64,000 nucleotides of DNA from Minisyncoccota bacterium (GCA_041664245.1 JBAYLC010000002.1:75593-139592), one strand, 5' to 3'; shown: positions 1 through 51,095, counted from the first letter of the stretch. A program made the numbers and translations. Notes: generated by a model from the letters alone, not told the origin.

Positions 1-3000
1 GATGGGAAATTGACGCCAAAATGGAATCGAGGGCTTATGGCAGCGGAGGAACTAATGATGTAATGAAAAATGATGGGGGGGTTTCGCCAAATTTATATGA
101 GGCTGGAACTGATTTAACTTTGTCGCCGCTTAAAGACCGACCGAACCTGGGCGGATCAACTGATGTGACGGCGCCGGCGGCAGTTACTAATTTGGCAGCC
201 CTAAATCCTACGCCTAATTCGATTGATTTGAGTTGGACGGCGCCCGGTGATGATGGAAATAATGGAACGGCGGCAAGTTATGATATTCGTTACTCAACTT
301 CGCCGATTACTGATTCTAATTGGGATTTGGCAACACGGATTACGGGGACGCCTTCGCCTCAGATAGCCGGTACTAGCCAGTCAAAAACTGTCTCGGGTTT
401 TGCCGAAAGTACGCAATATTATTTTGCGATGAAAGCCTCGGACGAAGTTCCGAATATTTCATCTCTTTCTAACTTAGTGACTATTTCGACGACGGCATCG
501 ATTCAGGAAATTACCGTGAAAATTCCGGAGACGTGCAAAGATGGCGACTACGGAGGGGGAATGAGTATAGAGTATTACAACAAGTGGACGATTCCTGGTT
601 CTGGAAAAGCGAGAATCACTAAGGTTTGGTTTTGGCAACAGGATTCATCTTTTGCTTCGACGGAGGCAATTGAGATGGCTATTTATAGTGGAGTTTCGGC
701 GCCCTATAATAAGATTTCGGAAGCAGTGACAATTTATGGAACCGGCGCGGCCGGCTGGGTGTATGGGAACTTATCAACGCCAATTCTAGTTGATTTAGGG
801 CAGACTTATATTTTTGGAATTGGGCCAAAAATTACCGGAAATAATTTTAGGATTCCGGTTGATGTCGGAGCAGATTGTGCTGGTTATTCACCGACCAGCG
901 GCAGTCGGGTTTTTGCTCAATCGCCGGCAGCTGGCGGGTTAAATGATCCGGTACCAGCAACAACTTTTTCTGACCACTACGGAATTTTAGGAGTTTCGTA
1001 TTATCCGGTTAATTTGGGCGACACAACGCCGCCGATTATTTCCGGGGTAGTGGCGGGAAATTTAACCGATAACACTGCCATGATTGTTTGGAATACTAAC
1101 GAACCGGCTAACGGAGAAGTAGATTACGGTTTGGATGCTGGGTATGGTTCGTCGACAATTGACGCATCTTTTCAAACAGCTCATTTTATAACCCTTTCTG
1201 GTCTGGCGCGGAATACAACTTATCACTATAAGGTTTTTTCAAAAGATCTAGCTTTGAATCCGACGGCTTCTGGGGATTTTACATTTACAACGACCAATCT
1301 GGGACCGGATGTAACGCCGCCAATTATTTCGACAATCTTTCCGGCGGCTAACGCTACTCTTGATGGGACGATAATAATTCAAGGAACAGCGACGGATGAC
1401 CGGAGCGTGGCTTCGGTTGAAGTTAAGGTGGATTCGGGAAATTACAGCGCGGCGGCGGGGACGCTGAATTGGACATTTTCGCTTGATACTAGAACTTTAA
1501 CTGATGGGGCGCACACAATTATTGCGCGGGCGACGGATACAACCGGAAACACAACGGTTTACTCTGTAAATGTTACGGTAAATAATACGATTATTGCAGT
1601 GACAAGTTGCCGCCCCTTAGATCAATCAAATGTTGTTTATGTTTTACAAAACAATGTTTCTTCTACTGGTACTTGTTTCGTGGTGGCAGCTAGCGGAATA
1701 ACTTTGGATTTAAACGGTAAGACGGTTACTTTTGGCACTGACTCAGGGCAGTATCGGTACGGAGTAGCAATACCGCCTGATTATATACCAGCCACTCTGA
1801 TTTATGACCTTACTGATATAAACGGCGCTTATTTTCGGGGTGCGGATAATATAATTATTAAAAACGGTTCAATTATCCAAGGAGGTAACGCAAGTACGAC
1901 GGAAAATATGGATTTAATAGCTGATGAGGGGGTTAATAATGTTGAGGTGGCAAGTATAACGGCAATGTATAGCGGTATCGATTCCCAGGGATTTATTCTT
2001 GGCAATGGCAGAAACTATAACATTCACGATAATGTTATTCATGCCAACCTCAGCCAAATCACTAACCGCCAACACGCCAAATCAGCGATTGGTTTAGCGA
2101 CAACAGGTGGTACTCTTTATGTCCGAAATAACACTGTCTACGGCGAGGGTCAGTTTGGAATTGCAGTTAGCACAAAGAGAGCTTTTCCGATGACGGCGGC
2201 AGAGGTTTCTGGCAACACAATGAGAATTAACGGCCTTACCACTAATCCTTATCAATTGGTGGTCCGCGGTTTTAGCCAAAAATACCAAGGAGTTTCACTT
2301 AAGGTATTTAATAATCGAATCGATACCCCTGGAAATGTTAGTAATCGCGGCGCTATCTTCGATGGGATTGATGCGGCTGGAGATGGTACCGACGGCATGA
2401 AGTTTTATAACAACTACATCGACACCAAAGAGCACGGCAATCCAGAATACGGCGATGCCGGTTGGACTCACGGCTTCCGAATGAGGGATCCCGACTATAT
2501 GATTCCCGAAACCAAATTCTTCAACAACGAGTTCTATAATAACACTTTCAAAACGGTCGCCTTTTATAATAGTGATACCGATAATGGAGATGCTATTAGT
2601 ATCAGAATCACTCTTCGTAACGGATTGCCAGTCGGAGAACAACCGAACGTATTCCACGACAATACAATAATTTCCCAAACTCTTGACTCGACCAAGGTGG
2701 CTACCGCTATCGGCCTCGAGGGTCACGCTTCAGAGGCCGGAACCATATTCCGCAACAACACCATTACGAGTGACACTAATCTTTTAAGAGTAACCTGGCA
2801 GGGTGGCAGCGGAGTGCTCTTTGACTCCAATACTTTCCAGAAGGGAGCCAGCGCCACTAATTTTCATCCAGTAAGCTATGGTAACGCCGGAACTTCAACC
2901 GACACCATCTTCTTAGATAGCACCATCGGTTCCGGAGTTGATTTTACTACTGCTGAGCAAACTTGGATGGGTGATTGTTGTTCGCCTGACAATCAAAGAG

Positions 3001-3320
3001 GGGACAGAGCTTATTATGTGAAGTGGACTTTAAACTTGACGGTAAATGATGGCGGTGGAACGCCGATTGCCGGCGCATCGGTAACGATAAAAGATAAAAA
3101 TAATTCGATAGTATTTACCGGGACAACAGATTCATTTGGTAATGTTTCCACGTCACTTTCGGAATATTATTGGCGGCAAGCGCCAACATACCCTATTCCA
3201 CCGCCGACTGTGACCACTTATAATCCTTACACAATTACAGTAACGGCTACTGGACATACTGACCAAACGCAATCAGTCACGATGAATACAAAGAAATCAT
3301 TAACAATAGTGATGCCCTAG
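1..3320 (+). CDS. 5'-truncated giant pilin-like surface protein with fibronectin-III-like and parallel beta-helix repeats. The ORF is open to the window start.
   Basis: The frame is open upstream of the Met at 21; codons 3-20 read WEIDAK in frame. The segment MESRAYGSGGTNDV...LSWTAPGDD...SYDIRYSTS is paralogous to the middle of the downstream pilin-like gene. The repeats (NNT/NNR-I, IHDNVIHAN, VRNNTVYG) are typical of a right-handed beta-helix. Confidence 0.6.
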   Translation, partial: WEIDAKMESRAYGSGGTNDVMKNDGGVSPNLYEAGTDLTLSPLKDRPNLGGSTDVTAPAAVTNLAALNPTPNSIDLSWTAPGDDGNNGTAASYDIRYSTSPITDSNWDLATRITGTPSPQIAGTSQSKTVSGFAESTQYYFAMKASDEVPNISSLSNLVTISTTASIQEITVKIPETCKDGDYGGGMSIEYYNKWTIPGSGKARITKVWFWQQDSSFASTEAIEMAIYSGVSAPYNKISEAVTIYGTGAAGWVYGNLSTPILVDLGQTYIFGIGPKITGNNFRIPVDVGADCAGYSPTSGSRVFAQSPAAGGLNDPVPATTFSDHYGILGVSYYPVNLGDTTPPIISGVVAGNLTDNTAMIVWNTNEPANGEVDYGLDAGYGSSTIDASFQTAHFITLSGLARNTTYHYKVFSKDLALNPTASGDFTFTTTNLGPDVTPPIISTIFPAANATLDGTIIIQGTATDDRSVASVEVKVDSGNYSAAAGTLNWTFSLDTRTLTDGAHTIIARATDTTGNTTVYSVNVTVNNTIIAVTSCRPLDQSNVVYVLQNNVSSTGTCFVVAASGITLDLNGKTVTFGTDSGQYRYGVAIPPDYIPATLIYDLTDINGAYFRGADNIIIKNGSIIQGGNASTTENMDLIADEGVNNVEVASITAMYSGIDSQGFILGNGRNYNIHDNVIHANLSQITNRQHAKSAIGLATTGGTLYVRNNTVYGEGQFGIAVSTKRAFPMTAAEVSGNTMRINGLTTNPYQLVVRGFSQKYQGVSLKVFNNRIDTPGNVSNRGAIFDGIDAAGDGTDGMKFYNNYIDTKEHGNPEYGDAGWTHGFRMRDPDYMIPETKFFNNEFYNNTFKTVAFYNSDTDNGDAISIRITLRNGLPVGEQPNVFHDNTIISQTLDSTKVATAIGLEGHASEAGTIFRNNTITSDTNLLRVTWQGGSGVLFDSNTFQKGASATNFHPVSYGNAGTSTDTIFLDSTIGSGVDFTTAEQTWMGDCCSPDNQRGDRAYYVKWTLNLTVNDGGGTPIAGASVTIKDKNNSIVFTGTTDSFGNVSTSLSEYYWRQAPTYPIPPPTVTTYNPYTITVTATGHTDQTQSVTMNTKKSLTIVMP

Positions 3321-3375
3321 TGGAATAACTTAGTTTTGTTATAATTAGTAAGGTTGTTTCTCGAGAAGTTTATTA

Positions 3376-4881
3376 ATGAATTTCTTTTTTTGTAGAAAAG
3401 GTTCTGATAGGGGGTTCACTTTAATTGAACTCCTGATTGTGATTGCGATAGTGGCGATTTTGGCGACTATTACTTTGTTAGTTTTGAATCCGTCGGAAAT
3501 GCTTAGAAAAGCAAGAGATAGTAAACGGATTTCTGATTTAAAAACAATAAATGACGCGATCGGATTATCGGTGGCTCAAATCCCGCCGCTTTTTATCGGA
3601 ACATCAACTTTTGTTTATGTATCTTTGCCCGACAGCGATCCAAATTGCGCCACTTATAATTTACCTTCTTTAGGCGGGACTGGAAAGACTTATTCTTGCC
3701 GGCCAGAGAGCAGCTATAGAAAGACCGATGGAACTGGCTGGGTGCCGGTGAATTTTGATAGTTTGCCTTCAAAAGTGCTTTCGGTTTTACCAGTTGATCC
3801 AGTAAATAGTAATAATGCGAGCAGCGGACTTTATTACACCTATGTGGCAGGTTCTTGGGAGTTGGACGCTAAGATGGAATCGGCGAAGTACGGATCGGGT
3901 GGGACCAACGATGTGAGCGCGAATGATGGCGGGGATGGCATTTCTCTTTTTGAGATTGGGAGTAGATTGACTTTGGTTCCGATCGTTATTAATGATAGGA
4001 CAGGAGCGTCTTCGACACCGGGGGATACAGCGCCGCCGGCGACAGTTGCAGATCTTGGTCTCTCTGGAGCGTCGACTTCAACTATCAATTTATCTTGGAC
4101 GGCGCCCGGTGATGACGAGAGTAGCGGAACGGCGGCGAGTTATGATATTCGTTACTCAACTTCATTAATAAATGCTGGAAATTTTGGATCAGCTGCTCAG
4201 GTTAGTGCACCGCCAACGCCGCAAGTTGCTGGTTCTGCGCAGGGGAAAATGGTGACTGGTTTATCGCCAAACACAACTTATTATTTTGCGATTAAAACCT
4301 CTGATGAGGTACCAAATGTTTCAGGCATTTCTAATGTGCCGAATTTAAGCACTAAGGCGGAGACGACAGTTCAAGTTCCGCCGGGGTGCGCGGTCACAAC
4401 TAGTTCTGCTGGAGCGACATGGGAGGTTTATACTCCCTGGACAATTCCTGGTTCGGGAAGCGCTCAAGTCACGAAACTTTGGTACTACGATTATGACGGA
4501 TCGATTTCTGGGGTAGAGAGTATTGTAATGGGTATTTATAATGGTTCTGCGCCGGGAGCGGCGGTGATTGCTAATTCCAGTACTACTTTAGCCGGAAGCG
4601 GTTCAGCGGGATCGTGGATTTCAGGGAGTTTGGTAACACCGATTTCAATCACACTCGGTCAGACATATATTTTTGGGATAGTTCCAAAAACTAGTACGAG
4701 TACCTATAGTATGGGCGGGATGGCATCGCCGTATTGCTCCGCATTCCCACCTAATTTTCCGCCCAATCAGAATAATTATTATTCAGGCAATCCTTCTAAC
4801 TATATTCTCGACAGTACAGTTCCGGCCGCCCAAACGGTTTTTGGTCATTTCGGCATTGTTGGAATCACATATATTCAGTAG
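3376..4881 (+). CDS. Type IV pilin-like protein with a C-terminal Fn3-like extension
   Basis: The N-terminus GFTLIELLIVIAIVAILA is a class III (prepilin) signal with a G/F cleavage site and Glu at +5. The Fn3-like block LSWTAPGDDESSGTAASYDIRYS is paralogous to ORF 1..3320. Confidence 0.65.
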   Translation: MNFFFCRKGSDRGFTLIELLIVIAIVAILATITLLVLNPSEMLRKARDSKRISDLKTINDAIGLSVAQIPPLFIGTSTFVYVSLPDSDPNCATYNLPSLGGTGKTYSCRPESSYRKTDGTGWVPVNFDSLPSKVLSVLPVDPVNSNNASSGLYYTYVAGSWELDAKMESAKYGSGGTNDVSANDGGDGISLFEIGSRLTLVPIVINDRTGASSTPGDTAPPATVADLGLSGASTSTINLSWTAPGDDESSGTAASYDIRYSTSLINAGNFGSAAQVSAPPTPQVAGSAQGKMVTGLSPNTTYYFAIKTSDEVPNVSGISNVPNLSTKAETTVQVPPGCAVTTSSAGATWEVYTPWTIPGSGSAQVTKLWYYDYDGSISGVESIVMGIYNGSAPGAAVIANSSTTLAGSGSAGSWISGSLVTPISITLGQTYIFGIVPKTSTSTYSMGGMASPYCSAFPPNFPPNQNNYYSGNPSNYILDSTVPAAQTVFGHFGIVGITYIQ

Positions 4882-9777: not shown

Positions 9778-10293
9778 TTATTTTATGATTTTGTAATGAA
9801 GTTGGATTTCGTTTTTGGAAATAAGAATTGTTTCGATTAACTTTAGATTTTTTTCAAACTGAGCTGGAGAAAAGAGGGGAATGCCGTGGCCGAAAACTAG
9901 AGGTTCAATAGTAATATAGATTTCGTCAATTAAATTCTCTTTTATAAAGCTGGCATTGATTTTGCTGCCGCCGGCTAAAAAGGCGGTATCCATTCCGCGA
10001 TTTTCGAGGAGTTTCAAGATATCGCGAGGTTTTTTATTGCTGATGATAACGTTGCTTTTTTCTGAAAGCAATTCCGGGTTTGTGGTTAGAACAATATTAA
10101 GACGATCAGGAAGAGGAAAATTACCTTCGTTTTTTAGGATTTCGTAAGTAGCGCGGCCAAAGATGACATTACCGCATTCCTTGCTTATTTCTGAGAATTT
10201 CTTTAGGTCTTCGGAGCTAGTCCAGTTAGAGTCGTAGTTTTCCCGGGCGATAAAACCATTAACCGTTGTGGCCATATAGAGAATGGTCCGCAT
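9778..10293 (-). CDS. Dihydrofolate reductase-family protein (RibD C-terminal-like)
   Basis: MATTVNGFIA...FGRATYE...LAGGSKIN...IYITIEPLVFGHGIPLF matches RibD_C / YwjB-type reductases. Confidence 0.6.
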   Translation of the reverse strand: MRTILYMATTVNGFIARENYDSNWTSSEDLKKFSEISKECGNVIFGRATYEILKNEGNFPLPDRLNIVLTTNPELLSEKSNVIISNKKPRDILKLLENRGMDTAFLAGGSKINASFIKENLIDEIYITIEPLVFGHGIPLFSPAQFEKNLKLIETILISKNEIQLHYKIIK

Positions 10294-18402: not shown

Positions 18403-19128
18403 TTATCTTATTTCAGTCCATTCTTTAGAGAATACTTTGTCAAAAACATGAAAATGGACGGTGTTTATCAAGAATAGGACAACGAGACGAGACCAGCCAA
18501 CTTGATGGGCTCTCCGGCCGGTATGATAGACGATAAGTTTTGGATCGGAAGTAACTTTACCAATTTTAGAAAGCCGTTTAAATAAATCGCGATCTTCGCG
18601 AGTTACAAGGTCTTCACGATAACCATTTACGAGTTTAAATGATTCACGACGGATCATTTGGAATTCGCCGCCAGCGGCATCACCACTATTGAATTTGTTG
18701 TTTTTTATCCTGGTTAGAAAATTCATAAGACCGAAGAAGAATTTATCGGTTCGGGTTTCGTGTTCGGGTTTAACTAAAATCTGGCCCGCCAGCGCGACAA
18801 GGTTTTTGTTGGCTTCAAAATTAGCAAGCGCCATTTTAAAAAACTGGTTGGGGTTTGGTATGGAGCAGTCGGCATCTAGAAACACTAAGAATTCGCCAAC
18901 AGCGGTTTTGGCGCCGTCATTCCGGCCCTGGGCGATGGTTTGGCGATTAAGGCCGGAAAATACCACTACCTTGTTTGTGTATTGTTTAGCGATTTCTATG
19001 GTTTTATCTTTACTTCCACCATCGGAGATGATTATTTCGTGAGGAAGCTGGAGATTCGATTTAAGAGAATTGAGAATCAAGCCAATCACTTTTTCTTCTT
19101 TAAGAGTAGGGATGATAATCGAAATCAT
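18403..19128 (-). CDS. Glycosyltransferase family 2
   Basis: N-terminal ISIIIPTLKEE...DGGSKDKT and a DxD-like motif FLDAD. Confidence 0.75.
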   Translation of the reverse strand: MISIIIPTLKEEKVIGLILNSLKSNLQLPHEIIISDGGSKDKTIEIAKQYTNKVVVFSGLNRQTIAQGRNDGAKTAVGEFLVFLDADCSIPNPNQFFKMALANFEANKNLVALAGQILVKPEHETRTDKFFFGLMNFLTRIKNNKFNSGDAAGGEFQMIRRESFKLVNGYREDLVTREDRDLFKRLSKIGKVTSDPKLIVYHTGRRAHQVGWSRLVVLFLINTVHFHVFDKVFSKEWTEIR

Positions 19129-19133
19129 ATTTT

Positions 19134-19877
19134 TTATTTTACCAATAGAAAATATAACCTGATAATTTGGTAATATTTTCCGACTGGAGAAACCGTTCGG
19201 GTGATATCAAGCCGCATTCCGAATTCTTTTACAAGGCCTTTTAAAATCCCGATCTTTTTAAATTTCAGCGGATCGGCGAGGCCTTCGCAGTAGACCGATT
19301 TAATTCTTAGTTTATTTTTGATTATAAATCTATTCATATAGCTTTCTATCCCATAGGGCAATAATTCGGAAAGTTTTTTCAGATGAGGAGTAATAAATGT
19401 TTTTGGGAAAACCCGATCGCCGGAGAGCCAGTCAATGCCAATGACGTGCCAGAGCCAAGGAGTGTTTGCTCTTAGGCTAATACTTTGATCGGCTTGATGA
19501 TTTAAGACTGGTTCGATAAGGGCAGTAACGTGTTCTGATTTGAGCCCCTCTAAATCGGCATCGCACATAAAAATCAAATCACCGGTGGCGCGGGAAAACC
19601 CTTCGGCCACGTCAGCGCTTTTCCCGCCCTTTTTTTCTTGGGCGATTAAAATAATATTGGGAAATTCGGCAACGATTTTTCGGGTATTGTCGGTCGAGGC
19701 GCCGTCAACCACGATTATTTCGTTTATTAACGGATGTTTACAGATTACATTTAGGACATCTCTAATTCTTTGTTCTTCGTTGTAGGCGGCGATAACACAG
19801 GAAATTTTTGAAAAATCATTTGGCATTTTTTTATATTTGATTTGATTTTGTAATATTATTTTTAATATATTTTCCAA
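19134..19877 (-). CDS. Glycosyltransferase family 2 (polyprenyl-phosphate sugar transferase-like)
   Basis: ISCVIAAYNEE...VVDGASTDNT...MCDADL pattern. Confidence 0.75.
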   Translation of the reverse strand: MENILKIILQNQIKYKKMPNDFSKISCVIAAYNEEQRIRDVLNVICKHPLINEIIVVDGASTDNTRKIVAEFPNIILIAQEKKGGKSADVAEGFSRATGDLIFMCDADLEGLKSEHVTALIEPVLNHQADQSISLRANTPWLWHVIGIDWLSGDRVFPKTFITPHLKKLSELLPYGIESYMNRFIIKNKLRIKSVYCEGLADPLKFKKIGILKGLVKEFGMRLDITRTVSPVGKYYQIIRLYFLLVK

Positions 19878-20424
19878 AGCCGACTATAACTAGGAAGACA
19901 ATCACCAGGCCGGCGATTACCGATATTTGGCCAAAAACGGAATTAACAATGGTGTAGAGATGTCCAAAAGTATAACCGATAAAAACAAGAAAGCCAGTCC
20001 AAAAAAATTGGCCAATGATATTTAAGGTCATGTATTTTCGGAAGGGGATTTTGACGAGCCCGGCGGTAATAAGAGTGACTAATGCGAAACCGAAGCCCAT
20101 TGTTAGTTTTGAAATTATAAGAATACGGTTGCGATGTTTATGAAAAACTTTTTTTACTGTTTCTATCTTATCTTCGGTGATACTAAAATATTTGCCGAAT
20201 TTTTTGACGAACGGCTGGCCAAAGTAGTAGCCGACAGCATACCACCAGGCGTCGCCGATTAAGTCGCCAATCATAAGAGCGGCGAAGGTTGGTAGAATTG
20301 GCAGGTAGCCAAGTTTTATAAAAAATCCCGAGGCGAGCATGATAAGCGGGCCTTCGACGATGGTGATGCCGATAATCAGAGGATATTTATATTGAAGAAT
20401 TAAGGCTACGAGGGTGGCGCTCAT
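19831..20424 (-). CDS. DedA/SNARE-associated (VTT domain) membrane protein
   Basis: DedA signature region KHRNRILIISKLTMGFGFALVTLITAGLVKIPFRKY. Confidence 0.7.
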   Translation of the reverse strand: MSATLVALILQYKYPLIIGITIVEGPLIMLASGFFIKLGYLPILPTFAALMIGDLIGDAWWYAVGYYFGQPFVKKFGKYFSITEDKIETVKKVFHKHRNRILIISKLTMGFGFALVTLITAGLVKIPFRKYMTLNIIGQFFWTGFLVFIGYTFGHLYTIVNSVFGQISVIAGLVIVFLVIVGFGKYIKNNITKSNQI

Positions 20425-20433
20425 TTGATTTGG

Positions 20434-21090
20434 TTAAAAACTGATTGGTTTTGAATCAAAAATTTCTTTGTCTTTCGGGAATAAGCGGACAGCGATATGG
20501 AAAATTGAGTAAGTAATGAAGAAAGCGGCGAGAACATCAATCGAGTAGTGATAGTGACCGAGAAGAACAATAACGCCGAAAAATAGTGAAGCGACGAGAG
20601 AGAGGAGTCGAATATATTTGTTTTTCCAAAAAATTAAAGCCATTAAGAATGGCATGCCAGTGTGGGAGGAGAAAAACAAGTCGGCGCCCGGACCAGCGAC
20701 AAATCGCTGAACAACATTTCCGAGCTCAAGAGGGTCTTGAGTGGGGAAAGGACCAAGATGAGTTAAGCTCATAAAAATAGAGCGGATAATAATAAAAATT
20801 GCGGTGCATTTTAAGACGAATGGAAATTTTTGCGGATTTAGCAAACAAACAATAAAAATAAAAAACCAAAAAATCAGTGGACCATAAAGAAAGGCCGGGC
20901 CAACGTCCCAAGGCTGGGTGTTGCTTAGAATAATATCAGTCACCGAATTGCTAGCCTTTTCGGTGGCGTATTGGGAGGCAAAATAGTTAACAAAAATGCT
21001 TATTGTAAGAAAAATAAGGGCAATACCGAGAGAGATAAGAAATTTATTATTTCGGAAGTGGAGCCGATATTTTTCGGCGATTTTTTTCAT
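20434..21090 (-). CDS. PAP2-superfamily membrane protein (sphingomyelin-synthase-like motifs)
   Basis: Six TMs with FSSHTG and HYHYSIDV...Y...FH blocks resembling the SGHT and HYTxDV motifs of lipid phosphate phosphatase / SMS-type enzymes. Confidence 0.5.
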   Translation of the reverse strand: MKKIAEKYRLHFRNNKFLISLGIALIFLTISIFVNYFASQYATEKASNSVTDIILSNTQPWDVGPAFLYGPLIFWFFIFIVCLLNPQKFPFVLKCTAIFIIIRSIFMSLTHLGPFPTQDPLELGNVVQRFVAGPGADLFFSSHTGMPFLMALIFWKNKYIRLLSLVASLFFGVIVLLGHYHYSIDVLAAFFITYSIFHIAVRLFPKDKEIFDSKPISF

Positions 21091-21233: not shown

Positions 21234-22754
21234 TTAGGCAAAACCTGAAAAAAAATCAGTTTTGATTTGGCTCTTAGTTAATCCGAGATTCAAAAGAGCT
21301 TTCTCCGCGGCGGTTACTAGCGAGCGGGGGCCGGATACATAGAATAATCTTTCGCCGTAATCGGGAATTTCATCGAGAATCATTTGCTCGTTTATAAAGC
21401 CTCGCTGGCCAGACCAGGAGGGGGGGATGCTATTTTTGTCGGTAAGGGTGTAAATCGTTTGGATGACCAGTTGCTCTTTCGCTTGGTCAAAAATTTCCTT
21501 ATAGGCGATATCAGAAATGGTTCTATTAGAATAAAGAAGAACGATCGATCGCTTTTCATTATTATCCAAAAGATATTTGACCATGCTTCGAAAGGGAGTG
21601 ATGCCAATGCCACCGGCAATAAAGGCAATTTTTCTTTTTTCATCTTTGGGTAGAACAAAATCGCCGGATAGCTGGGCGGCAACAATATCATCTTCTTGAT
21701 CCATTGAAAGAAGCTTTTTTTTGAAACTACTGGGGTTATTATAAAATTTTACGCCCAGGCGTAGATCATTTTCGGTTGGCGAGGAGGCAATGGTGAAATA
21801 TCTCCTATTGCCGCGGTTGTCAGAGTGGGCGTGGCCCAGAGTCCACTCCATATATTGGCCGGGGCGGAACTTTATTTTTTTATCAAATCCGAAAATAAAG
21901 TCATAAGTTCCGGCGCCAACTTCTTTTTTTGATTTTAATTTCAAAATATATTTCCCTTTTGGGCTAACTAAATAAGAAAAGATGTTACCAACCAAGAGAG
22001 CTAATTCTGGTGTTGAATAGATTGAACCAAGATGAACGGCGGGGGCAAAAAGAAAGCCCACGAGGGCGCCATAAATAATTCGAAGCGATTTGGCGGGCGG
22101 GGTGGTAAGCGGTTCGGTCAACATTACAAAGGCTAAGAAAAAAATGGGAGTATGAAGGATTGTTTTTGTAATGGCGCTAATTGGGTTCTGAATAGAAAAA
22201 GCGGTGATGGTGACAAGAGCGGCAATAAAAAAGGAAAGAACTAGATCGAATCGGTGGATTTTTCTAGTGATAAGTAACCCGCCCAAAACCACAAAGGCTA
22301 ACATTGGGATACTGCCGCCGATCCACCAGGTGGCGGATTGACCGATAGTGAAGGCGGTTAAGGCGACAGCAAGAGCGACTGGATTAAAAATATGTTTTTT
22401 AGAAATCGCAAAAATGTATTTGGTGGCCATGCTCCAAGCGGCAACCCAGACGAGGAAAGAAACATCCATCAGGTTTGATGGCATAACCGGCGTTATGATG
22501 AGCGCTAAGATAAGGGCCGTGATGTAGGCAGATTCGATATTGATTTGAGCTTTAAAAATTCCGGCAAAGACAGAGTTGGAAATCCAGGAGACAAGCACGA
22601 GGATAGAGGCAGTGAAGATGAGAGCAATCGGGTTGTAGGATAAAAATCCCAAAAAACTGAAAATAATCGCGACTACCAAAAGTACGATAAGATAATATAG
22701 AACAAGACGATACATTGTCATTTTATTGAGGAAATCGTCAATGAATTTAAACAT
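21234..22754 (-). CDS. Polytopic membrane protein fused to an FNR-like FAD/NAD(P)-binding oxidoreductase domain (putative transmembrane electron-transfer flavoprotein)
   Basis: ~260-aa multi-TM N-terminus containing four His residues. The C-terminus carries RPGQYMEW...RRYFTIASSP (RxYS/T FAD motif) and FIAGGIGITP (NAD(P) motif). Confidence 0.6.
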   Translation of the reverse strand: MFKFIDDFLNKMTMYRLVLYYLIVLLVVAIIFSFLGFLSYNPIALIFTASILVLVSWISNSVFAGIFKAQINIESAYITALILALIITPVMPSNLMDVSFLVWVAAWSMATKYIFAISKKHIFNPVALAVALTAFTIGQSATWWIGGSIPMLAFVVLGGLLITRKIHRFDLVLSFFIAALVTITAFSIQNPISAITKTILHTPIFFLAFVMLTEPLTTPPAKSLRIIYGALVGFLFAPAVHLGSIYSTPELALLVGNIFSYLVSPKGKYILKLKSKKEVGAGTYDFIFGFDKKIKFRPGQYMEWTLGHAHSDNRGNRRYFTIASSPTENDLRLGVKFYNNPSSFKKKLLSMDQEDDIVAAQLSGDFVLPKDEKRKIAFIAGGIGITPFRSMVKYLLDNNEKRSIVLLYSNRTISDIAYKEIFDQAKEQLVIQTIYTLTDKNSIPPSWSGQRGFINEQMILDEIPDYGERLFYVSGPRSLVTAAEKALLNLGLTKSQIKTDFFSGFA

Positions 22755-23502
22755 TGATTGAGGTGTATTTTTTAAAGCCGCTCGTCATGGTGGCTTGGCC
22801 GTTTTTATCAATTTGATAACCTTCAAAACCATCCAGGTTTTCGATGAAGTTAATTCCGTTTTGCTCCATGGCGAAAGCAGCGGTGGCAAACCGGTCGGCT
22901 TCGTAGATGTTCGGCCCGATAACCGTCAAGCTGACAACTTCAGTGATGGGTTTGGTTTTGTTTTTGGGATTGTAGATATGCTGGCCGCGCAAGTAACTGC
23001 CGGAGGTGGCGACGCCCTCGTTATTTTTTATATAAATCACTTTAACAATTTCTTCCGGATGAAAAGGATTCTTAATGCCGACTGACCAATCTTCGCCGCG
23101 GCTGTTTTTGCCGCGCGATTGAATATCGCCGCCGGCGTCAATATAAAAATTTTCCCGGCCAATTTTTTGGAGGATTTGCGCAGCGTTATAAATTGCCCAA
23201 CCTTTGACAAGGCCGGAGGGGTCGATTTTTCCGTTTGGGGCGGTAATATCGAAATAGCCGTTTGTTTTTTGGTTTGTTTCGGTTGAAAGAGTGAAAACGG
23301 TTTTCATATCTTCGCTCCAGTCTCTTTCTTGCAGTTCGCCGCGATTAATTTTAGAAATCTCACTTGTTTCTTTGTAGGGGCTGAATTTTTTATCAACGTA
23401 ATCAAAGTAGGAAAAGACTTTTTCGAGGTCGGTTTCCGGAGAAGGAGAATCAAGTATTTCAACAGTAATCGTCATCCCCATCATTTTTCGGACTTGCTTC
23501 AT
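22747..23502 (-). CDS. apbE: FAD:protein FMN transferase (ApbE family)
   Basis: ApbE motifs DITAPNGKIDPSGLVKGWA...YIDAGGDI. Overlaps the downstream oxidoreductase start, implying an operon. Confidence 0.8.
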   Translation of the reverse strand: MKQVRKMMGMTITVEILDSPSPETDLEKVFSYFDYVDKKFSPYKETSEISKINRGELQERDWSEDMKTVFTLSTETNQKTNGYFDITAPNGKIDPSGLVKGWAIYNAAQILQKIGRENFYIDAGGDIQSRGKNSRGEDWSVGIKNPFHPEEIVKVIYIKNNEGVATSGSYLRGQHIYNPKNKTKPITEVVSLTVIGPNIYEADRFATAAFAMEQNGINFIENLDGFEGYQIDKNGQATMTSGFKKYTSINV

Positions 23503-23509
23503 GGTCTAA

Positions 23510-24076
23510 TTAGTTTTTTGCTTGAGCGAGCGCCGAACCAAGCGATTCGATAAAGGCATTACTAGTGTCGGTCGCGCCCGAGACAATATCAACTTGAGCA
23601 TTTTGAGCCTGAATAGCTTCGGTTATTAAGTAGGGCATAGCTTGAGTGTTAATTTGAATTGAGGTTCGTCGATCACTGGGGTATTGCAGAAATTGGACAT
23701 CGGTAAGACGGCCGCCCTGGATGGTGGCGGCGACTTGGACATTACCGTAATAAGCGTCGGCAGTTGTGCCGGTGTAGGAACCGTCTCGGTATATTCCTTT
23801 AGGCGCCGGTGGCGGCGTAGGAGCGGGTTTAGGGGAAGGAGTTGGGGTTGGTGTGGGAGCTGGCTGAGGAGGTTTTTTTGTAGTTTTTGGATTTGAGGTT
23901 GGCGGGGCGGGAGTGATAGTTTTGTCGGGCTGGGGATCGGAAGTCGGGGCGGATTTAGATGCTGGATCGCCGACCGGAAGATTATTGATGTAAATACCTA
24001 ATTGTTTGGAGCTACTTAATATCGCGTAGAAGGTAAATGCAATGATAAAAACAAACGATAGAAGAAATTTTTTCAT
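23510..24076 (-). CDS. Extracytoplasmic FMN-binding domain protein (flavinylation substrate)
   Basis: N-terminal TM/signal and a Pro/Thr-rich linker. FMN_bind domain with the covalent flavinylation motif DIVSGATDTS (SGAT). Confidence 0.7.
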   Translation of the reverse strand: MKKFLLSFVFIIAFTFYAILSSSKQLGIYINNLPVGDPASKSAPTSDPQPDKTITPAPPTSNPKTTKKPPQPAPTPTPTPSPKPAPTPPPAPKGIYRDGSYTGTTADAYYGNVQVAATIQGGRLTDVQFLQYPSDRRTSIQINTQAMPYLITEAIQAQNAQVDIVSGATDTSNAFIESLGSALAQAKN

Positions 24077-40906: not shown

Positions 40907-41623
40907 TTAGTCTATTTTGAAGACCGAATGATCATGTCCGTTAATTGAGGCGAAAAGATGACCAAATCTCGGTGCAAAGAAGTCTTTTAGTTTCTCCATC
41001 TCGCCATTGTTTCTGTAAGCCATATCTGCATACTCAATTTTACTTTTTTCCGTAAGTTCTTCAATTTTTCCGTCAAGTTTTTTAATATCCAGGCTTAATT
41101 CTTGAGCATTTTTTTTAATCAACGATAATGCATTTGCTCTGGTTATATCAAAATTTCTCGCTGTTCTTTCATGCGTGTGTTTGTCCCTAAACTTAGTTGC
41201 TTCCTTGAGGCCACTCATCACATTATTTTTAAGATGATCTAATAAACGATTAGCATCATTTGGATTCGCAAGGTTATATCTAGATAAATCATTTTTAAGA
41301 GAACCGATTATTCCCATTATTCTTTCCTTTAAAATATAAATGTCTTGCATATAAGAATACCAATGATACTCAACTGCTTCCGATTTTGAAATTGCCTCAG
41401 ATGTAGGATAAAATTCCAAAAAATACAAGGGGTACCTCCCTATTTTCCTTAAAACAGAATCCAACTCAAGTATTTTTTCGAAATAGAATTTTGCTCTTTT
41501 TTCCTGCCAGCTTTTAGGTTTCATGTTACCTAGAAGAACATCTAATGGGAAGTTATTTGGAAAATAGTTCGTTAATATTTGAAATTTTGTTATTTCTGGC
41601 ATGGGCAAAGAATTATGTCTCAT
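40907..41623 (-). CDS. Hypothetical protein (possible HEPN-like Rx4H motif)
   Basis: 238-aa helical protein containing FRDKHTHERTAR (R-x4-H). No other recognisable domain. Confidence 0.3.
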   Translation of the reverse strand: MRHNSLPMPEITKFQILTNYFPNNFPLDVLLGNMKPKSWQEKRAKFYFEKILELDSVLRKIGRYPLYFLEFYPTSEAISKSEAVEYHWYSYMQDIYILKERIMGIIGSLKNDLSRYNLANPNDANRLLDHLKNNVMSGLKEATKFRDKHTHERTARNFDITRANALSLIKKNAQELSLDIKKLDGKIEELTEKSKIEYADMAYRNNGEMEKLKDFFAPRFGHLFASINGHDHSVFKID

Positions 41624-41646
41624 CGACGTTCCTCGGACGCAAAAAT

Positions 41647-42531
41647 TTAAGATGGCCTATCATTAAACTGCTCATCAAATTGTTGATTGAGCGTTTTATC
41701 GGTTCGTATATCGAATGTCGGTTCGTTATTAACAATGAGTGGACGTCCCAAAATCGCGATAAAATTCTCTAAGTCCACGCCGGAAGAAAGTTTTAGTAAT
41801 TTTTTATATTCAGTTTGAATATCTGCTACATCTTGCATTGAAGATTCAGATATAGCTCTAACTTGATTATAGTCTGGTCCGACTAAATATTTTCTCAGCA
41901 CGACATTGTTAAAGCCCTCGCCTGGGGCTGTTATGTAGATTGTATTTATAATGCTATTTTTTCTGAAGGTTACCACTGTCAAATTCGTTGGATCAATTTT
42001 CTTATTGGATAGGAAAAAATCCAATGAATTATTATCGAAATCTAGATAACCACTTTCATTAGCTGCGAAAAAGAAAGATTGATAATTGCCTGGATTCCCG
42101 TGGTAGTATTCTTCGTGATAATAAAAATCGTGCGCCCCAAGATAGGCGAATATGTTATCGGGAGTACCAATGTCTGAAAATTTTGTTTTCCCTAAGATAA
42201 TTGTTTTAGCTCCTGATTCAAATTTTGTTTCATCGCTAGGATTTTTAGAGTCAGCGTAATAAAGATCTTGAAGGATAGTAAAAGACGGCGTGAAATTTTT
42301 GTTCCTAACAGTGATTCCATACGCTAAAACTTTATCCGCGCTGTCGGTTAATGCTTGGACGTAATAATATTTGGAACCGAATATATATTCTTTGACTGGT
42401 GGAGGCGGGATTGGGTGCGGGGAAAATCTATCATACAAGGTATAAACGCCGACCACCGCACCTACCAAAACTGCAAGACCTCCTACGATACCCCAAAATA
42501 TATTCCACGCCCTTAAGATTTTCTTCCACAT
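41647..42531 (-). CDS. Membrane-anchored hypothetical protein
   Basis: N-terminal TM WNIFWGIVGGLAVLVGAVVGV, then a Pro-rich segment and a ~250-aa extracytoplasmic domain rich in Y/F/N. Confidence 0.35.
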   Translation of the reverse strand: MWKKILRAWNIFWGIVGGLAVLVGAVVGVYTLYDRFSPHPIPPPPVKEYIFGSKYYYVQALTDSADKVLAYGITVRNKNFTPSFTILQDLYYADSKNPSDETKFESGAKTIILGKTKFSDIGTPDNIFAYLGAHDFYYHEEYYHGNPGNYQSFFFAANESGYLDFDNNSLDFFLSNKKIDPTNLTVVTFRKNSIINTIYITAPGEGFNNVVLRKYLVGPDYNQVRAISESSMQDVADIQTEYKKLLKLSSGVDLENFIAILGRPLIVNNEPTFDIRTDKTLNQQFDEQFNDRPS

Positions 42532-42607
42532 GATAGTTGCCTTTGTTTATGCTCTTCGGACTCCGAATTTATCTCAAGGTGGCTGCCGAGGTTTTATTTG
42601 ACCGCTT

Positions 42608-43588
42608 TTACGTATTTTCAAATATATCCCTTAGAAAAGAGTGGTATTTTTCGGCTATATCTATTCGCCACTTTTCTTTTTCGGAAAGCATATATTGATA
42701 AGGCCACATTATTAATTCGCAATAGATAATCAAAAATTTGTCTTGCTCTCTCGGCAGTTTTTCTTTGGTGGCCTCTTCGTAGCCACACAGGACTTCTTCA
42801 AAAGCGTCCTTACCTAAAAATGCGTAGATATCGGAAGCCACCCGATAAATGTTTATAAATCTATATCCATGCAGCCAGTCTTCCTTTGGGGAATAAGTAT
42901 CCATCGGCAAAAGAGTGCCGTTTATATACGCCGCGTTATCAGCGTGAATATCGAGACACAATCCGACTAAGTCTTTTGAATTTTTAAATTCCTCCCTGTG
43001 GCTCTCCAGAAATTTTTTTACGTAATCTAAATATTTTTTTGCTTCATCAACCGGAACTTCTTTTACACCGGTTGCCCAAGCGACTAGGTCTTTATAACGC
43101 GGAATAAAATCATCGTACAAATCATAGGGAAATATTCGCTGTATTTTGATGATTCTTTGTCCGAGTTGAAATCCGATCTGATGGCAATCCTCTTTAGAAA
43201 TACGATTATCAATAAGTTTTTTCAGTAAGCCGTCGGACGCGCTCACTTTATTCATGACAATTACTAGCTCTTCAGATTCATCGGAGGACTCGGTGAATTT
43301 GGCAGTATCGCCATCTAGTGTTACTCCTTTTAGTTCCGTGTATATTTCCGGGCTTAGTTTATTATTCCATTCAAAATCTTTACGGGTAAAAGTAAAGCGG
43401 CCTGATTTTTGGGAAAGGTCGTTAAAATTCTCGTTGAAAAATTGATTATCGCTTTTGTAGATTTTATAGACCACGTTTTTAAAAATAAAAACGTTGGATA
43501 TGGCGGTTACAATATGTTGAGGAATTTCGGACTTGCTACCGCTTAATTTACCTTCGGCGAATGCTTCAACTAAGTTCATGTTACTCAA
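42608..43588 (-). CDS. Putative kinase-like (APH/ChoK-fold) phosphotransferase
   Basis: Weak. A Lys-containing N-lobe segment (VVYKIYKS) and a catalytic-loop-like LCLDIHADNAAYIN (HxD...N), plus a downstream D-containing motif. Overlaps the next gene by 8 nt. Confidence 0.35.
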   Translation of the reverse strand: MSNMNLVEAFAEGKLSGSKSEIPQHIVTAISNVFIFKNVVYKIYKSDNQFFNENFNDLSQKSGRFTFTRKDFEWNNKLSPEIYTELKGVTLDGDTAKFTESSDESEELVIVMNKVSASDGLLKKLIDNRISKEDCHQIGFQLGQRIIKIQRIFPYDLYDDFIPRYKDLVAWATGVKEVPVDEAKKYLDYVKKFLESHREEFKNSKDLVGLCLDIHADNAAYINGTLLPMDTYSPKEDWLHGYRFINIYRVASDIYAFLGKDAFEEVLCGYEEATKEKLPREQDKFLIIYCELIMWPYQYMLSEKEKWRIDIAEKYHSFLRDIFENT

Positions 43589-44625: not shown

Positions 44626-45876
44626 ATGGCAAAAGCGAGTCCACAAGAAGTTAAAGAGCTGAAGTTGGAGATTGAAAAAAATCTCACGAAACCACTCGAG
44701 GATGTTTCTATCGTCAGCCTAGTCGGCTTGTTTGTTAAATACGCCTATATGGCGGGAGCGTCGGATGTTCACCTTGATCCGACGGAAGATAGGATTCGAG
44801 TGCGATTCAGAATTGACGGTATGCTCCATGATATTTTTAACCAGATTGCCATTTCCAAAGAATTACACCAAGAAATTATTAGCCGGATAAAAGTTATCTC
44901 GGGTTTGAGGACTGACGAACATTTTTTACCGCAAGATGGGCGGTTTAAGGTGGAGACGGACGAAAAAGAAAACGTGGACGTGCGGGTTTCAATCGCGCCG
45001 ACTTATCACGGCGAAAACGCGGTCCTTAGAATTTTAGCCGAGACGCAATCTTTCAAATTAGAAGACTTGGGATTTTCGGAAGATGAACTAAAGAAAGTAC
45101 AGAAGGCGATTAAAAAGCCGTACGGAATGATTTTGGCGAACGGGCCGACGGGTTCGGGAAAAAGCACGACGCTTTACACGATTCTAAAACAGTTGAACGT
45201 GCCGGAGGTTTCGATTGTGACGGTGGAAGACCCAATTGAGTATTCACAAGACGGACTTTCCCAGATTCAGGTGGATTCTAAAGTCGGGTTGACTTTCGCT
45301 TCGGGACTGCGGTCAATCTTGCGGCAAGACCCGAATGTTATTATGGTCGGGGAAATTCGTGATCAAGAAACGGCGGGAATTTCGGTGAACGCGGCTTTGA
45401 CCGGCCACTTGGTGCTCTCAACTTTACATACTAATGATGCGGCGACAACTTTTCCGCGACTTTTGGATATGGGCGTGCCGCCGTTTTTGATTGCTTCCAC
45501 AGTTAACATCGCCATGGGCCAACGGCTCATCAGAAAAATTTGTGAGAATTGTAAAGTCAAAAGAGAGTTTACCGAGGCCGAGATGCAGGGCATCGTGGAA
45601 ATGGTGCCGCAAGTGAAAGACCATAATTTGGTTTTTTACATCGGAAAGGGATGTGATGTTTGTAACGGCATAGGTTATAAGGGTCGGGTGGGAATCCGCG
45701 AAGTTATTGAAGTCAATCGGGAGATTCGCGATTTAATTATGAACCGCGCCAACGCAGACCAGATTAAAGAAGCGGCGATTAAGAATGGAATGAGAACGAT
45801 GTTTCAGAATGGAATTGAGCAGGCCCTAGACGGAGTTACATCTCTTGAAGAAATTTTGAGGATTATTCATGAATAG
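44626..45876 (+). CDS. pilB: Type IV pilus assembly ATPase PilB / GspE-family
   Basis: Walker A GPTGSGKSTT, Asp box, Walker B VGEIRD, His box, and a tetracysteine CENC...CDVC motif. Confidence 0.85.
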   Translation: MAKASPQEVKELKLEIEKNLTKPLEDVSIVSLVGLFVKYAYMAGASDVHLDPTEDRIRVRFRIDGMLHDIFNQIAISKELHQEIISRIKVISGLRTDEHFLPQDGRFKVETDEKENVDVRVSIAPTYHGENAVLRILAETQSFKLEDLGFSEDELKKVQKAIKKPYGMILANGPTGSGKSTTLYTILKQLNVPEVSIVTVEDPIEYSQDGLSQIQVDSKVGLTFASGLRSILRQDPNVIMVGEIRDQETAGISVNAALTGHLVLSTLHTNDAATTFPRLLDMGVPPFLIASTVNIAMGQRLIRKICENCKVKREFTEAEMQGIVEMVPQVKDHNLVFYIGKGCDVCNGIGYKGRVGIREVIEVNREIRDLIMNRANADQIKEAAIKNGMRTMFQNGIEQALDGVTSLEEILRIIHE

Positions 45877-46954
45877 AAAATTATCTCGCCGGCGTTTTGG
45901 CTCTTTTTTTGAAAGATTGCCCGTGCAAGATCGGATTAATTTTGCGCGGCATCTTTCGATTGTGATTAAAGCCGGGTTGCCGATTGTTGAGGGTCTTAAG
46001 ATCATACGGAGCCAGTCAACTTCAAAGGTGCTAATAAGGATATTGGATGACTTAATTCAAAGCGTGGAGATGGGACAGTCGCTCGCCGATGGCTTGGAAG
46101 CTTACAAGCATTTATTCGGCGGGTTTTTTATAAATATTATTAGGGTGGGGGAGACGAGCGGAACTTTGAGCCAGAATTTAATTTATCTGGCGGAAGAATT
46201 GAAAAAAGACAAAGAACTTAAAAGTAAGATTAAGTCGGCGATGGTCTATCCAATGGTTATTTTAGTGGCGACGGTGTCGATTGTGGGGTTTTTGACTTAC
46301 GTGGTTTTCCCAAAAATTATTCCAGTTTTTACCGGACTTAATATCAAGTTGCCGGCGACGACCAGATTTTTGATGGGCTTTTTGGATTTTTCAAAAGATT
46401 ACGGAGCGTACGCAGTCGCTGGGCTTATAATTTTAGCAATTATTTTTAAAATACTTTTGAAATATGAGTGGTTCAAGTATTATTTTGATCGGGCGATTTT
46501 TTTCGTGCCAGCGCTTTCGGGACTAGTTATAAATATTAATATGGCTAATTTTTCCCGAATTATGGGGTTACTTCTAAAAAGCGGAATCAGAATAGTCGAG
46601 GCGGTGACGGTGACGAGTAACACTTTTGATAATGTGGTGTATAAAAGAATTTTGGGTGGAGCGAATGACGAAATTAGAAAAGGAGAACAGCTGGCTCATT
46701 ATTTAGTTGACCATCAAAAGTTTTTTCCGCTTTTACTTTGCGGAATGATAAGAATTGGAGAAAACACCGGTAATTTGGAGGACAATCTTTTCTATCTGTC
46801 GGAATATTACTCAGAGGAGGTGGATAATAAGATAAAAAATTTAACTGGACTTCTGGAACCGGTGATGCTTCTTTTGATGGGGATTTTTGTCGGATTTGTG
46901 GCGATTTCAATAATCACACCGATTTATTCGATTTCACAAGGATTGGCGAGCTAA
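45869..46954 (+). CDS. pilC: Type IV pilus platform protein PilC / GspF-family
   Basis: Two T2SSF repeats and three TMs. Overlaps pilB by 8 nt. Confidence 0.85.
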   Translation: MNRKLSRRRFGSFFERLPVQDRINFARHLSIVIKAGLPIVEGLKIIRSQSTSKVLIRILDDLIQSVEMGQSLADGLEAYKHLFGGFFINIIRVGETSGTLSQNLIYLAEELKKDKELKSKIKSAMVYPMVILVATVSIVGFLTYVVFPKIIPVFTGLNIKLPATTRFLMGFLDFSKDYGAYAVAGLIILAIIFKILLKYEWFKYYFDRAIFFVPALSGLVININMANFSRIMGLLLKSGIRIVEAVTVTSNTFDNVVYKRILGGANDEIRKGEQLAHYLVDHQKFFPLLLCGMIRIGENTGNLEDNLFYLSEYYSEEVDNKIKNLTGLLEPVMLLLMGIFVGFVAISIITPIYSISQGLAS

Positions 46955-48861: not shown

Positions 48862-49497
48862 ATGAATAAAATAAGAAACAGAGAAGGATTTTCGTTCATC
48901 GAAATTATTATTTTTGTGGCGATTGCGGCAGTTTTAATGTTAGTGGTGAATAGTTTGAAAAATAATGTTTCTAGTATTGGGGGTTTTGTTGACCAGAAAC
49001 TTTTATCAAAACAAGATGTTGAGCAAGCGTTGCAAATTATGGTGACAGAAATTAGGTCGGCTGGACCTTCTAGTTTGGGCGCTTATCCGGTTGAGTCGGC
49101 AACGACAAGTTCCTTCGCTTTTTTTAGTGATATAAATAAAGATGGGATTTTTGAGAAGGTGAGATATTTTTTAGCGACGAACGCCGGGACTAGCACAGCA
49201 ACGAGTACCATAAAGAAAGGCGTGATAATTCCGACCGGAAATCCTTTAACGTATGTGACTAGCACTGAGATTATTTCAAAAGTTATTAATAATGTGGTTG
49301 TTTCAACTTCATCTAATCTTTTTGATTATTTTGACAGTTCAGCAACGAGTACGGCAAAAATGATGACCTTGCCGGTGAATGTCCAGAGTATAAGGATTGT
49401 TAGATTTAATATTTACGCTGATTTAAAGCCTGGATCGGCGCCAAAGCCATCGTTTTTTTCCGACGTGGCTAATATAAGGAATTTAAGGAGCAACTGA
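48862..49497 (+). CDS. Pseudopilin / minor pilin
   Basis: NREG|FSFIEIIIFVAIAAVLML prepilin signal. Confidence 0.7.
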   Translation: MNKIRNREGFSFIEIIIFVAIAAVLMLVVNSLKNNVSSIGGFVDQKLLSKQDVEQALQIMVTEIRSAGPSSLGAYPVESATTSSFAFFSDINKDGIFEKVRYFLATNAGTSTATSTIKKGVIIPTGNPLTYVTSTEIISKVINNVVVSTSSNLFDYFDSSATSTAKMMTLPVNVQSIRIVRFNIYADLKPGSAPKPSFFSDVANIRNLRSN

Positions 49498-49534
49498 GTG
49501 TGTATCAAGTATCAAGTGTCAGGTATCAAGAATT

Positions 49535-50992: not shown

Positions 50993-51095
50993 GAATAGAG
51001 AATTATGAATTACGGGAAATGAAAATAGAGACTTAAGAGCTGGCACGAATGATGCGGATTACACGCGAATGACGCGAAATGGTAAAATTAAAGCT

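Follow-up and report, generated by a model that had tools for sequence, protein, structure and literature searches.

A three-gene operon of the NQR/RNF-like flavinylation class in a Candidatus Paceibacterota genome and its predicted all-flavin route across the membrane

Méheust et al. 2021 (PMC8238504) described an "NQR/RNF-like" system, in which a protein with an N-terminal PF03116 domain fused to a C-terminal PF00175 domain is encoded within a flavinylation gene cluster, beside apbE and a gene for a membrane-anchored FMN_bind protein. This class, found for the most part in Actinobacteria and in the candidate phyla radiation (CPR), was first reported with 127 clusters, which were treated as single-pathway systems (PMC8238504). 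The flavinylated threonine of NqrB/RnfD is not conserved in the subunit that resembles NqrB/RnfD (Huang et al. 2024, PMC10979944), and for the system as a whole a one-way flow from reduced nicotinamide adenine dinucleotide (phosphate), NAD(P)H, to the outside has been proposed. In an AlphaFold-multimer model, the NqrC/RnfG-like subunit docks on the extracytosolic face of the NqrB/RnfD-like subunit, and its covalent flavin mononucleotide (FMN) was proposed to sample the flavin pocket of its partner (PMC10979944). Here we analyse an operon of this type, encoding an FMN_bind protein, the FMN transferase ApbE and a PF03116-PF00175 fusion protein. It lies on the minus strand of a 64,000-nucleotide stretch of DNA (GCA_041664245.1 JBAYLC010000002.1:75593-139592, hereafter the window) from a metagenome-assembled genome of Candidatus Paceibacterota, which belongs to the CPR.

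Judged from its sequence, the operon is an ordinary member of this class. The fusion protein has the same order of domains, the ApbE and FMN_bind genes are the two genes immediately 5' of it, as the class definition demands, and all of the sequence-level features of the class are present, with nothing essential differing. The first-pass annotation of the window had considered such a module notable in a reduced, Patescibacteria-like genome. It is less so, as the same architecture has already been published for the CPR (PMC8238504, PMC10979944). To the published class we add that the loss of the threonine is traced to a loop deletion, that relatives are present in at least 549 species genomes, a far larger family than the 127 clusters of the first report, that the copies from Chloroflexota form one clade and that ApbE is uniformly leaderless.

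In terms of larger complexes, the locus shares with Na+-NQR (NqrA-F) and Rnf (RnfABCDGE) the NqrB/RnfD fold, the HxFNP and T(D/E)P motifs and a covalent-FMN partner of the NqrC/RnfG type. Its input domain resembles the flavin adenine dinucleotide (FAD)/NAD module of NqrF. The differences are that two proteins are found here and not six, with no Fe-S clusters and no NqrD/E or RnfA/E in the window, that the B/D-like domain has no covalent FMN site, and that the flavodehydrogenase is fused to it directly. The electron flow proposed here is one-way and outward, whereas in NQR and Rnf it follows a semicircular path. As for the MsrQ-like, NOX and ferric-reductase proteins (PF01794) fused to PF00175, these also place a cytosolic NAD(P)H domain of the FNR type on a transmembrane conduit, and have apbE and FMN_bind genes as neighbours. 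Their conduit has six helices and two bis-His b haems; the one encoded by the locus has the NqrB/RnfD fold, ten helices and no conserved pair of His.

Bacteria of the CPR are usually described as living by fermentation, with no electron-transport chain. In these organisms, a conserved route outward that uses flavins throughout and is driven by NAD(P)H would be one of the few candidates for redox balance, or for the reduction of external or host substrates. Earlier publications on the class have raised this redox-outlet point, and the locus is a further example of it, not a discovery.

Genes and domains of the operon

The first-pass annotation had called a three-protein operon on the minus strand. 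All three open reading frames (ORFs) are present where it had placed them, and Pfam assigns FMN_bind, ApbE and NAD_binding_1 to their products (Table 1). The NCBI annotation names the fusion protein "RnfABCDGE type electron transport complex subunit D" and the other two "FAD:protein FMN transferase" and "FMN-binding protein". The FMN_bind gene and apbE are separated by 7 nucleotides, and apbE overlaps the fusion gene by 8 nucleotides, so the three genes form one translationally coupled unit. A promoter and terminator scan was uninformative, with no convincing minus-strand promoter 5' of the operon.

None of the three proteins (506, 251 and 188 amino acids) contains a single cysteine, which excludes Fe-S clusters and c-type haems. 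About 57 ORFs of the window were surveyed with Pfam, and no respiratory component was found besides the three-gene operon, in agreement with what had been noticed at first. The surveyed ORFs are housekeeping, envelope and type IV pilus genes, together with many that have no assignment.

The FMN_bind protein (188 amino acids) is composed of a basic N-terminus, one hydrophobic helix, a Pro/Thr stalk and an FMN_bind domain of about 85 residues. The stalk and the D-x-x-SGAT motif that had been described for it are both there, the motif reading VDIVSGAT and ending in Thr169. Hydropathy and charge are the basis for calling the anchor export-type; by the positive-inside rule, its N-terminus is predicted to be inside and the domain outside. 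The same pattern of KK or RK followed by a hydrophobic helix is also seen in about 70 homologues, with linkers that vary in length and composition. A twin-arginine translocation (Tat) motif was found neither in the protein nor in these approximately 70 homologues, and since the protein has no cysteine it is not a lipoprotein.

Among solved structures, the nearest relatives are the single FMN domains 8p2a (E 4e-12, aligned over residues 101-185 including "VSGAT") and 8p2b. These domains (PMC10339131) are also of about 85 residues with a VSGAT site, and theirs was experimentally flavinylated by ApbE. The multi-flavinylated proteins from which they come carry 3-4 domains in a string, whereas here a single domain sits on an anchor and a Pro/Thr stalk. 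Across the family, the flavinylation motif [ST]G[AS][ST] is present in 70 of 72 members and SGAT in 69 of 72, with D or N at -6 and at a distance of 18-21 residues from the C-terminus (about 19 for Thr169). The threonine whose conservation in homologues had been singled out as decisive is retained in nearly all of them. No second FMN_bind protein and no further D-x-x-[ST]GA[ST] target appeared in a six-frame translation of the window, and the FMN_bind protein is presumed to be both the substrate of ApbE and the extracytoplasmic electron carrier.

A variation was found at a distant locus (L085, fusion protein 39% identical), where positions 3623-4099, 5' of ApbE, encode a small anchored protein without a Pfam match. 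There "VAGSSLT" replaces "VSGAT", which, to go by the sequence, may be a Ser-linked or a degenerate flavinylation site.

The matches of ApbE in the PDB are ApbE/Ftp structures, with E down to 8e-22. Aligned to solved FMN transferases, it keeps the hallmark FAD/Mg2+-binding motifs, TSGSY, H-I-x-N-P and EAD...T, and the conserved His is aligned with that of E. coli ApbE/Ftp 4xgw (RGQHIYNP vs RLSHVIDP).

The C-terminal part of the fusion protein is an FNR-like FAD/NAD(P)H domain, as had been recognised from its RRYFTIASSP and GGIGITP motifs, with NAD_binding_1 (PF00175) matched at residues 378-484 (E 9e-18). NCBIfam models of flavohaemoprotein FAD/NAD modules match it with E down to 2e-26, the FAD domain of NqrF is among the matches of a PDB profile search (E 8e-16), and 7qty is a Foldseek match (TMt 0.75). 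Taken together, the profile and Foldseek searches liken it to the FAD/NAD modules of NqrF, flavohaemoglobin and b5-reductase. The residue after the "YSNRT" strand, D416, is acidic, and it is E in the family consensus. We take such a residue to be b5-reductase-like within the FNR family and to point to NADH, so that NADH rather than NADPH is suggested as the donor.

Membrane domain and its shortened outer loop

The membrane domain of the fusion protein had been read as a NOX or ferric-reductase type of domain. The evidence assigns it instead to NqrB/RnfD. Pfam NQR2_RnfD_RnfE (PF03116) matches residues 147-263 with E 2e-8 and 34.4 bits, against a cut-off of 27.7, and Ferric_reduct (PF01794) has no match in the fusion protein at E < 0.01. 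Aligned by hhalign to E. coli RsxD, the domain reaches a probability of 93%, and in a PDB profile search its sole sequence relative is RnfD.

The AlphaFold2 model of the full-length fusion protein has a predicted local distance difference test score (pLDDT) of 87.9 and a predicted template modelling score of 0.75, and shows a ten-helix membrane domain joined to the FNR-like domain. Foldseek of the full-length model is dominated by the FNR domain and is uninformative for the membrane part, so the N-terminal domain was modelled alone (pLDDT 79; ten helices). The best 15 matches of this model are all RnfD or NqrB chains, with probability 1.0, TM-scores of 0.55-0.71 and E between 1.5e-5 and 1e-3; beyond these, E jumps to about 0.4, and what is left is urea transporters and noise. 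No haem-protein fold and no six-helix fold of the Ferric_reduct type is among the matches.

Conservation was counted in 95 diverse family representatives, 37-54% identical to the query. Four histidines (121, 167, 201 and 241) are present in the membrane domain, as had been noted when they were put forward as ligands of two haems. Only H121 is conserved (94/95), with H167 in 6/95, H201 in 8/95 and H241 in 48/95, so no conserved His pair remains in the alignment. The alignment to RsxD further places H121 in an HxFNP motif that is common to haem-free RnfD. With no cysteine and a single conserved histidine, flavins are the only plausible cofactors, and the transmembrane conduit is predicted to be flavin-based.

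Other positions are invariant. The loop from T213 to P220, the counterpart of "LTDPVT" in RnfD (Table 1), probably lies on the cytoplasmic side, as do, in all likelihood, the N- and C-termini of the membrane domain. Three acidic residues, E74, E214 and E250, are membrane-embedded and invariant.

The clearest departure from RnfD is in the loop that carries its FMN. The FNPA helix of E. coli RsxD is followed, after about 95 residues that include the flavinylated DGISQAT187, by the "LAGGVWLL" helix; the corresponding stretch of the fusion protein has 13 residues (TIGQSATWWIGGS), so that about 80 residues of the FMN-bearing loop are deleted. The covalent-FMN threonine of RnfD/NqrB proper (S/T-x-A-T; T187 in RsxD numbering) is therefore absent from the fusion protein. 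As read from this alignment, the deletion is the structural reason for the loss of threonine reported by Huang et al. 2024. Together with the near-invariant SGAT of the partner protein, it agrees with that study (PMC10979944). Given ten helices and an NAD(P)H domain that is necessarily cytoplasmic, the remaining loop (138-143) is predicted to face outward.

We considered whether T142, in the "QSATWW" of this short loop, is a retained flavinylation site of the RnfD type. It was rejected, because a hydroxyl residue is found in only 64 of the 95 members and because, in a gap-tolerant global alignment, T142 stands opposite S141 of RsxD ("QMTSW"), with T187 inside the deleted stretch. W143 and W144 are invariant. 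In 50 close homologues the site is S or T in 47, with an invariant Ala before it, and T142 might still be flavinylated in this subfamily.

Conserved linkage, electron route and alternative explanations

The gene neighbourhood was compared in 80 related loci (L002-L081), where about 900 neighbour genes within 6 kb were clustered. The order FMN_bind, ApbE, fusion recurs in most of the loci, a linkage far beyond chance. The fusion gene is found in 75 of them, FMN_bind in 68 and ApbE in 56, and no other gene occurs in more than 10. As only the three core genes recur, the module is self-contained, and no gene for its acceptor lies close by. Other Rnf/Nqr subunits were found neither in the window (Pfam) nor as recurrent neighbours in the 80 loci.

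Domain identities, fold, conservation, gene linkage and the absence of haem and Fe-S ligands are all observed, and we conclude that the operon is probably a stand-alone, NQR/RNF-like, all-flavin transmembrane electron-transfer module. The chain from NAD(P)H through FAD and the membrane to an extracytoplasmic FMN, which had been suggested by the first-pass annotation, stands in outline, as does its placement in an ApbE-dependent class in Patescibacteria; the transmembrane mechanism given there does not.

In the route that we propose, NAD(P)H, probably NADH, would reduce the non-covalent FAD of the cytoplasmic FNR-like domain. Electrons would then traverse the ten-helix domain by way of a non-covalent flavin, held in the pocket or pockets that bind FMN or riboflavin in NqrB/RnfD. 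From there they would reach the FMN attached by ApbE to Thr169 of the FMN_bind protein, with its one-helix anchor and 75-residue stalk. With the FMN-bearing loop of RnfD gone from the fusion protein, the tethered FMN domain would most likely dock on the outer face, insert its flavin and swing away to reduce an extracytoplasmic acceptor. The length of the stalk suggests that the domain could act as such a swinging shuttle. With a module of this kind, a fermentative cell could dispose of reducing equivalents, or could reduce iron or some other substrate outside.

Several points weigh against this conclusion. No biochemical characterisation of any NQR/RNF-like member is given in PMC8238504 or PMC10979944. 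What we infer, and do not observe, is which cofactor the membrane domain holds, how the partner docks, which way the electrons flow and what accepts them, and the preference for NADH comes solely from a D416-type residue. In the 80 loci, there is no linked gene for an acceptor such as a terminal reductase or an iron transporter. Lastly, across the family ApbE has no signal peptide, though its FMN_bind substrate always has an export-type anchor.

In the window, neither a signal peptide nor a membrane helix nor a lipobox is present in ApbE. The protein begins 8 residues ahead of the MGxT domain start, and a missed N-terminal extension is ruled out by an in-frame stop two codons 5' of the ATG. 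The homologous proteins of the 80 loci all begin with MK(Q/E)TRxxMGMP and are all leaderless, as are those of two distant branches (L085 and L087). Most characterised ApbEs are extracytosolic and carry a signal peptide or a lipobox. ApbEs without a leader are known to be active in the cytosol (PMC12052999). The cytosolic ApbE of Klebsiella pneumoniae, which also has no signal peptide or lipobox, serves a cytosolic, soluble fumarate reductase, whereas the only linked substrate here has an export-type anchor. Neither PMC8238504 nor PMC10979944 takes up this mismatch in topology.

Possible resolutions are flavinylation before translocation, a partner that faces the cytoplasm, another export route or another substrate. 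A Tat signal was considered as an explanation for cytoplasmic flavinylation and was set aside, as no Tat motif is seen in the FMN_bind proteins. One may speculate on an undescribed route, in which FMN is attached to Thr169 in the cytoplasm, before or during translocation, and the flavinylated domain then becomes the swinging shuttle by which an episymbiont that does not otherwise respire dumps NADH electrons onto external or host-derived acceptors. We regard this combination as rather doubtful; if true, cytoplasmic flavinylation would remove the need for FAD export. Either way, a leaderless ApbE with an exported substrate is an inconsistency that biochemical work on the class must resolve, and it is the residual novelty of the locus.

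The mismatch also bears on an arrangement in which the FMN_bind domain is cytosolic, on the inner face of the membrane, and an NAD(P)H:flavin system feeds an acceptor in or at the membrane, leaving the cell exterior free of any flavoprotein. Tethers that span the envelope typically have long Pro/Thr/Ser-rich stalks, which counts against it, as do the basic residues N-terminal to the anchor, seen in essentially all homologues and predicting the domain outside. The loop whose deletion makes the docking pocket belongs to the outer face by topology, and the published AlphaFold-multimer model docks the subunit extracytosolically (PMC10979944). Thus, in spite of the family-wide leaderless ApbE, the cytosolic targets of known leaderless ApbEs (PMC12052999) and the lack of a Tat motif, all of which favour a cytoplasm-facing domain, we find this arrangement improbable.

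A further variant would tie the electron flow to the movement of Na+ or H+, which would make the operon a minimal ion-motive NADH:acceptor oxidoreductase or a system for gradient-driven uphill reduction. In structural work on Na+-NQR, NqrB has reportedly been proposed to hold the Na+ path, and the invariant acids embedded in the membrane (E74, E214 and E250) are compatible with such a role. We give the variant little credence, as NqrD/E, the partners of NqrB in coupling, are missing from the window.

It is very unlikely that the fusion and FMN_bind proteins are remnants or subunits of a larger, ion-pumping, ferredoxin- or quinone-linked Rnf/Nqr complex, the rest of which is encoded elsewhere. 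The homology to RnfD/NqrB and to FMN domains of the RnfG/NqrC type, as well as the name given by NCBI, would suit such a complex, and our view of the genome covers 64 kb only. Even so, the FNR-like fusion replaces the NqrF/RnfC input, the FMN loop of RnfD is deleted, no cysteine is available for Fe-S clusters, and no other subunit is in the window or recurs within 6 kb in the 80 loci. Méheust et al. (PMC8238504) likewise treated the class as single-pathway.

Finally, a NOX, ferric-reductase or MsrQ type of conduit, with the four histidines ligating two b-type haems, is excluded for the membrane domain by the conservation of H121 alone, within a motif of haem-free RnfD, by the above-threshold PF03116 match without one to Ferric_reduct and by the exclusively RnfD/NqrB structural matches, against which there stand only the presence of the histidines themselves, a sub-threshold NAD_binding_6 match (E 7.5e-4, 20 bits vs a cut-off of 22.2), the existence of a separate flavinylation class in which PF00175 is fused to MsrQ-like proteins (PMC8238504) and a full-length Foldseek match to S. 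pneumoniae NOX (E 1.4e-14, with a root-mean-square deviation of 17 A) that is due to the shared FNR-type dehydrogenase domain.

Distribution and other features of the window

Homologues of the fusion protein form more than 7,900 clusters at 90% identity, and at 50% identity 1,475 sequences represent the membrane domain. The species genomes with a relative, at least 549, belong to many Patescibacteria lineages and to Chloroflexota. In a neighbour-joining tree of the copies from L002-L081, all 28 fusion copies labelled as Chloroflexota form one clade, beside copies from Microgenomates-type Patescibacteria, and identity across phyla is 53-62%. The single Chloroflexota clade points to an inheritance that is old and for the most part vertical.

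Some labels may be wrong, as several contigs from binchicken bins that are given as "uncultured Gammaproteobacteria" or "Saccharibacteria" cluster with Patescibacteria. Some fusion genes are orphans. A 513-residue member (37% identical) lies beside mutS/mutL at two loci (L083, 5001-6542; L084, 3578-5119), and neither an ApbE nor an FMN_bind gene is found within 5 kb.

The features of the operon are collected in Table 1, together with the genes directly downstream of it. The latter keep their synteny in the closest relative (L082, 91% identical), none of the 80 other loci has them, and an unrelated envelope-lipid cluster is the probable explanation.

Table 1. Coordinates of the operon, its domains and motifs, and the genes directly downstream, counted from the first nucleotide of the window (aa, amino acids).
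Feature	Position	Strand	Details
FMN_bind protein gene	23510..24076	-	188 aa; ORF; Pfam FMN_bind PF04205, E 7e-8
N-terminal signal anchor	24005..24076	-	aa 1-24, MKKFLLSFVFIIAFTFYAILSSSK; basic residues, then hydrophobic helix
Pro/Thr-rich low-complexity stalk	23777..24001	-	aa 26-100; 23 Pro and 10 Thr in 75 residues
FMN_bind domain	23513..23776	-	aa 101-188; Pfam match aa 109-183; D163-I-V-S-G-A-T169 (VDIVSGAT)
Thr169 codon	23570..23572	-	predicted FMN phosphoester site
apbE gene	22747..23502	-	251 aa; Pfam ApbE PF02424, E 6.5e-42
Fusion protein gene	21234..22754	-	506 aa; Pfam PF03116 and PF00175; 8-nucleotide overlap with apbE stop
NqrB/RnfD-like membrane domain	21957..22754	-	aa 1-266; ten helices (AlphaFold2 models); Foldseek; hhalign
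H121-I-F-N-P motif	22380..22394	-	only conserved His; N124 and P125 at least 95% conserved; RsxD counterpart NPFNPAM
Short outer-face loop Q139-S-A-T142-W-W	22323..22340	-	remnant of RnfD/NqrB FMN-bearing loop
T213-E-P-L-T-T-P-P	22095..22118	-	counterpart of RnfD "LTDPVT" (RsxD LTDPVTAS); E214, P215, T217 and P219 at least 95% conserved
FNR-like FAD/NAD(P)H domain	21237..21953	-	aa 268-506; cytoplasmic electron input
RRYFTIASSP motif	21777-21806	-	aa 317-326
GGIGITP motif	21594-21614	-	aa 381-387
PAP2_C phosphatase-like membrane protein, DedA/VTT protein, two GT2 glycosyltransferases	18403-21090	-	directly downstream of operon

Elsewhere in the window, positions 9778-10293 (minus strand) encode a 171-residue reductase similar to RibD_C and DHFR (E 9e-17 and 2e-13), which could bear on the folate or flavin metabolism of a flavin-dependent genome. 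Sizeable ORFs without a Pfam match (238, 294, 326, 211 and 485 amino acids) are found at 40907-43588 (minus strand) and 48862-50992 (plus strand). The second of these runs sits within a type IV pilus cluster, with PilB at 44626-45876, PilC at 45869-46954 and a pilin at 51069-51557.

In a 455-residue protein at 54491-55858 (plus strand), a YkuD L,D-transpeptidase domain and a Peptidase_S11 D,D-carboxypeptidase domain occur together, and a second S11 enzyme follows at 57248-58348. At 21-4881 (plus strand), a surface-type protein of 1099 residues (fn3, Big_7 and purple-acid-phosphatase N domains) precedes a 501-residue protein in which a pilin-type N-terminal methylation motif is fused to fn3.

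Lastly, GC skew is positive in nearly all 2-kb bins of the window (1-64000), and the cumulative skew climbs almost monotonically. This places the whole window on one replichore, though it has genes on both strands.

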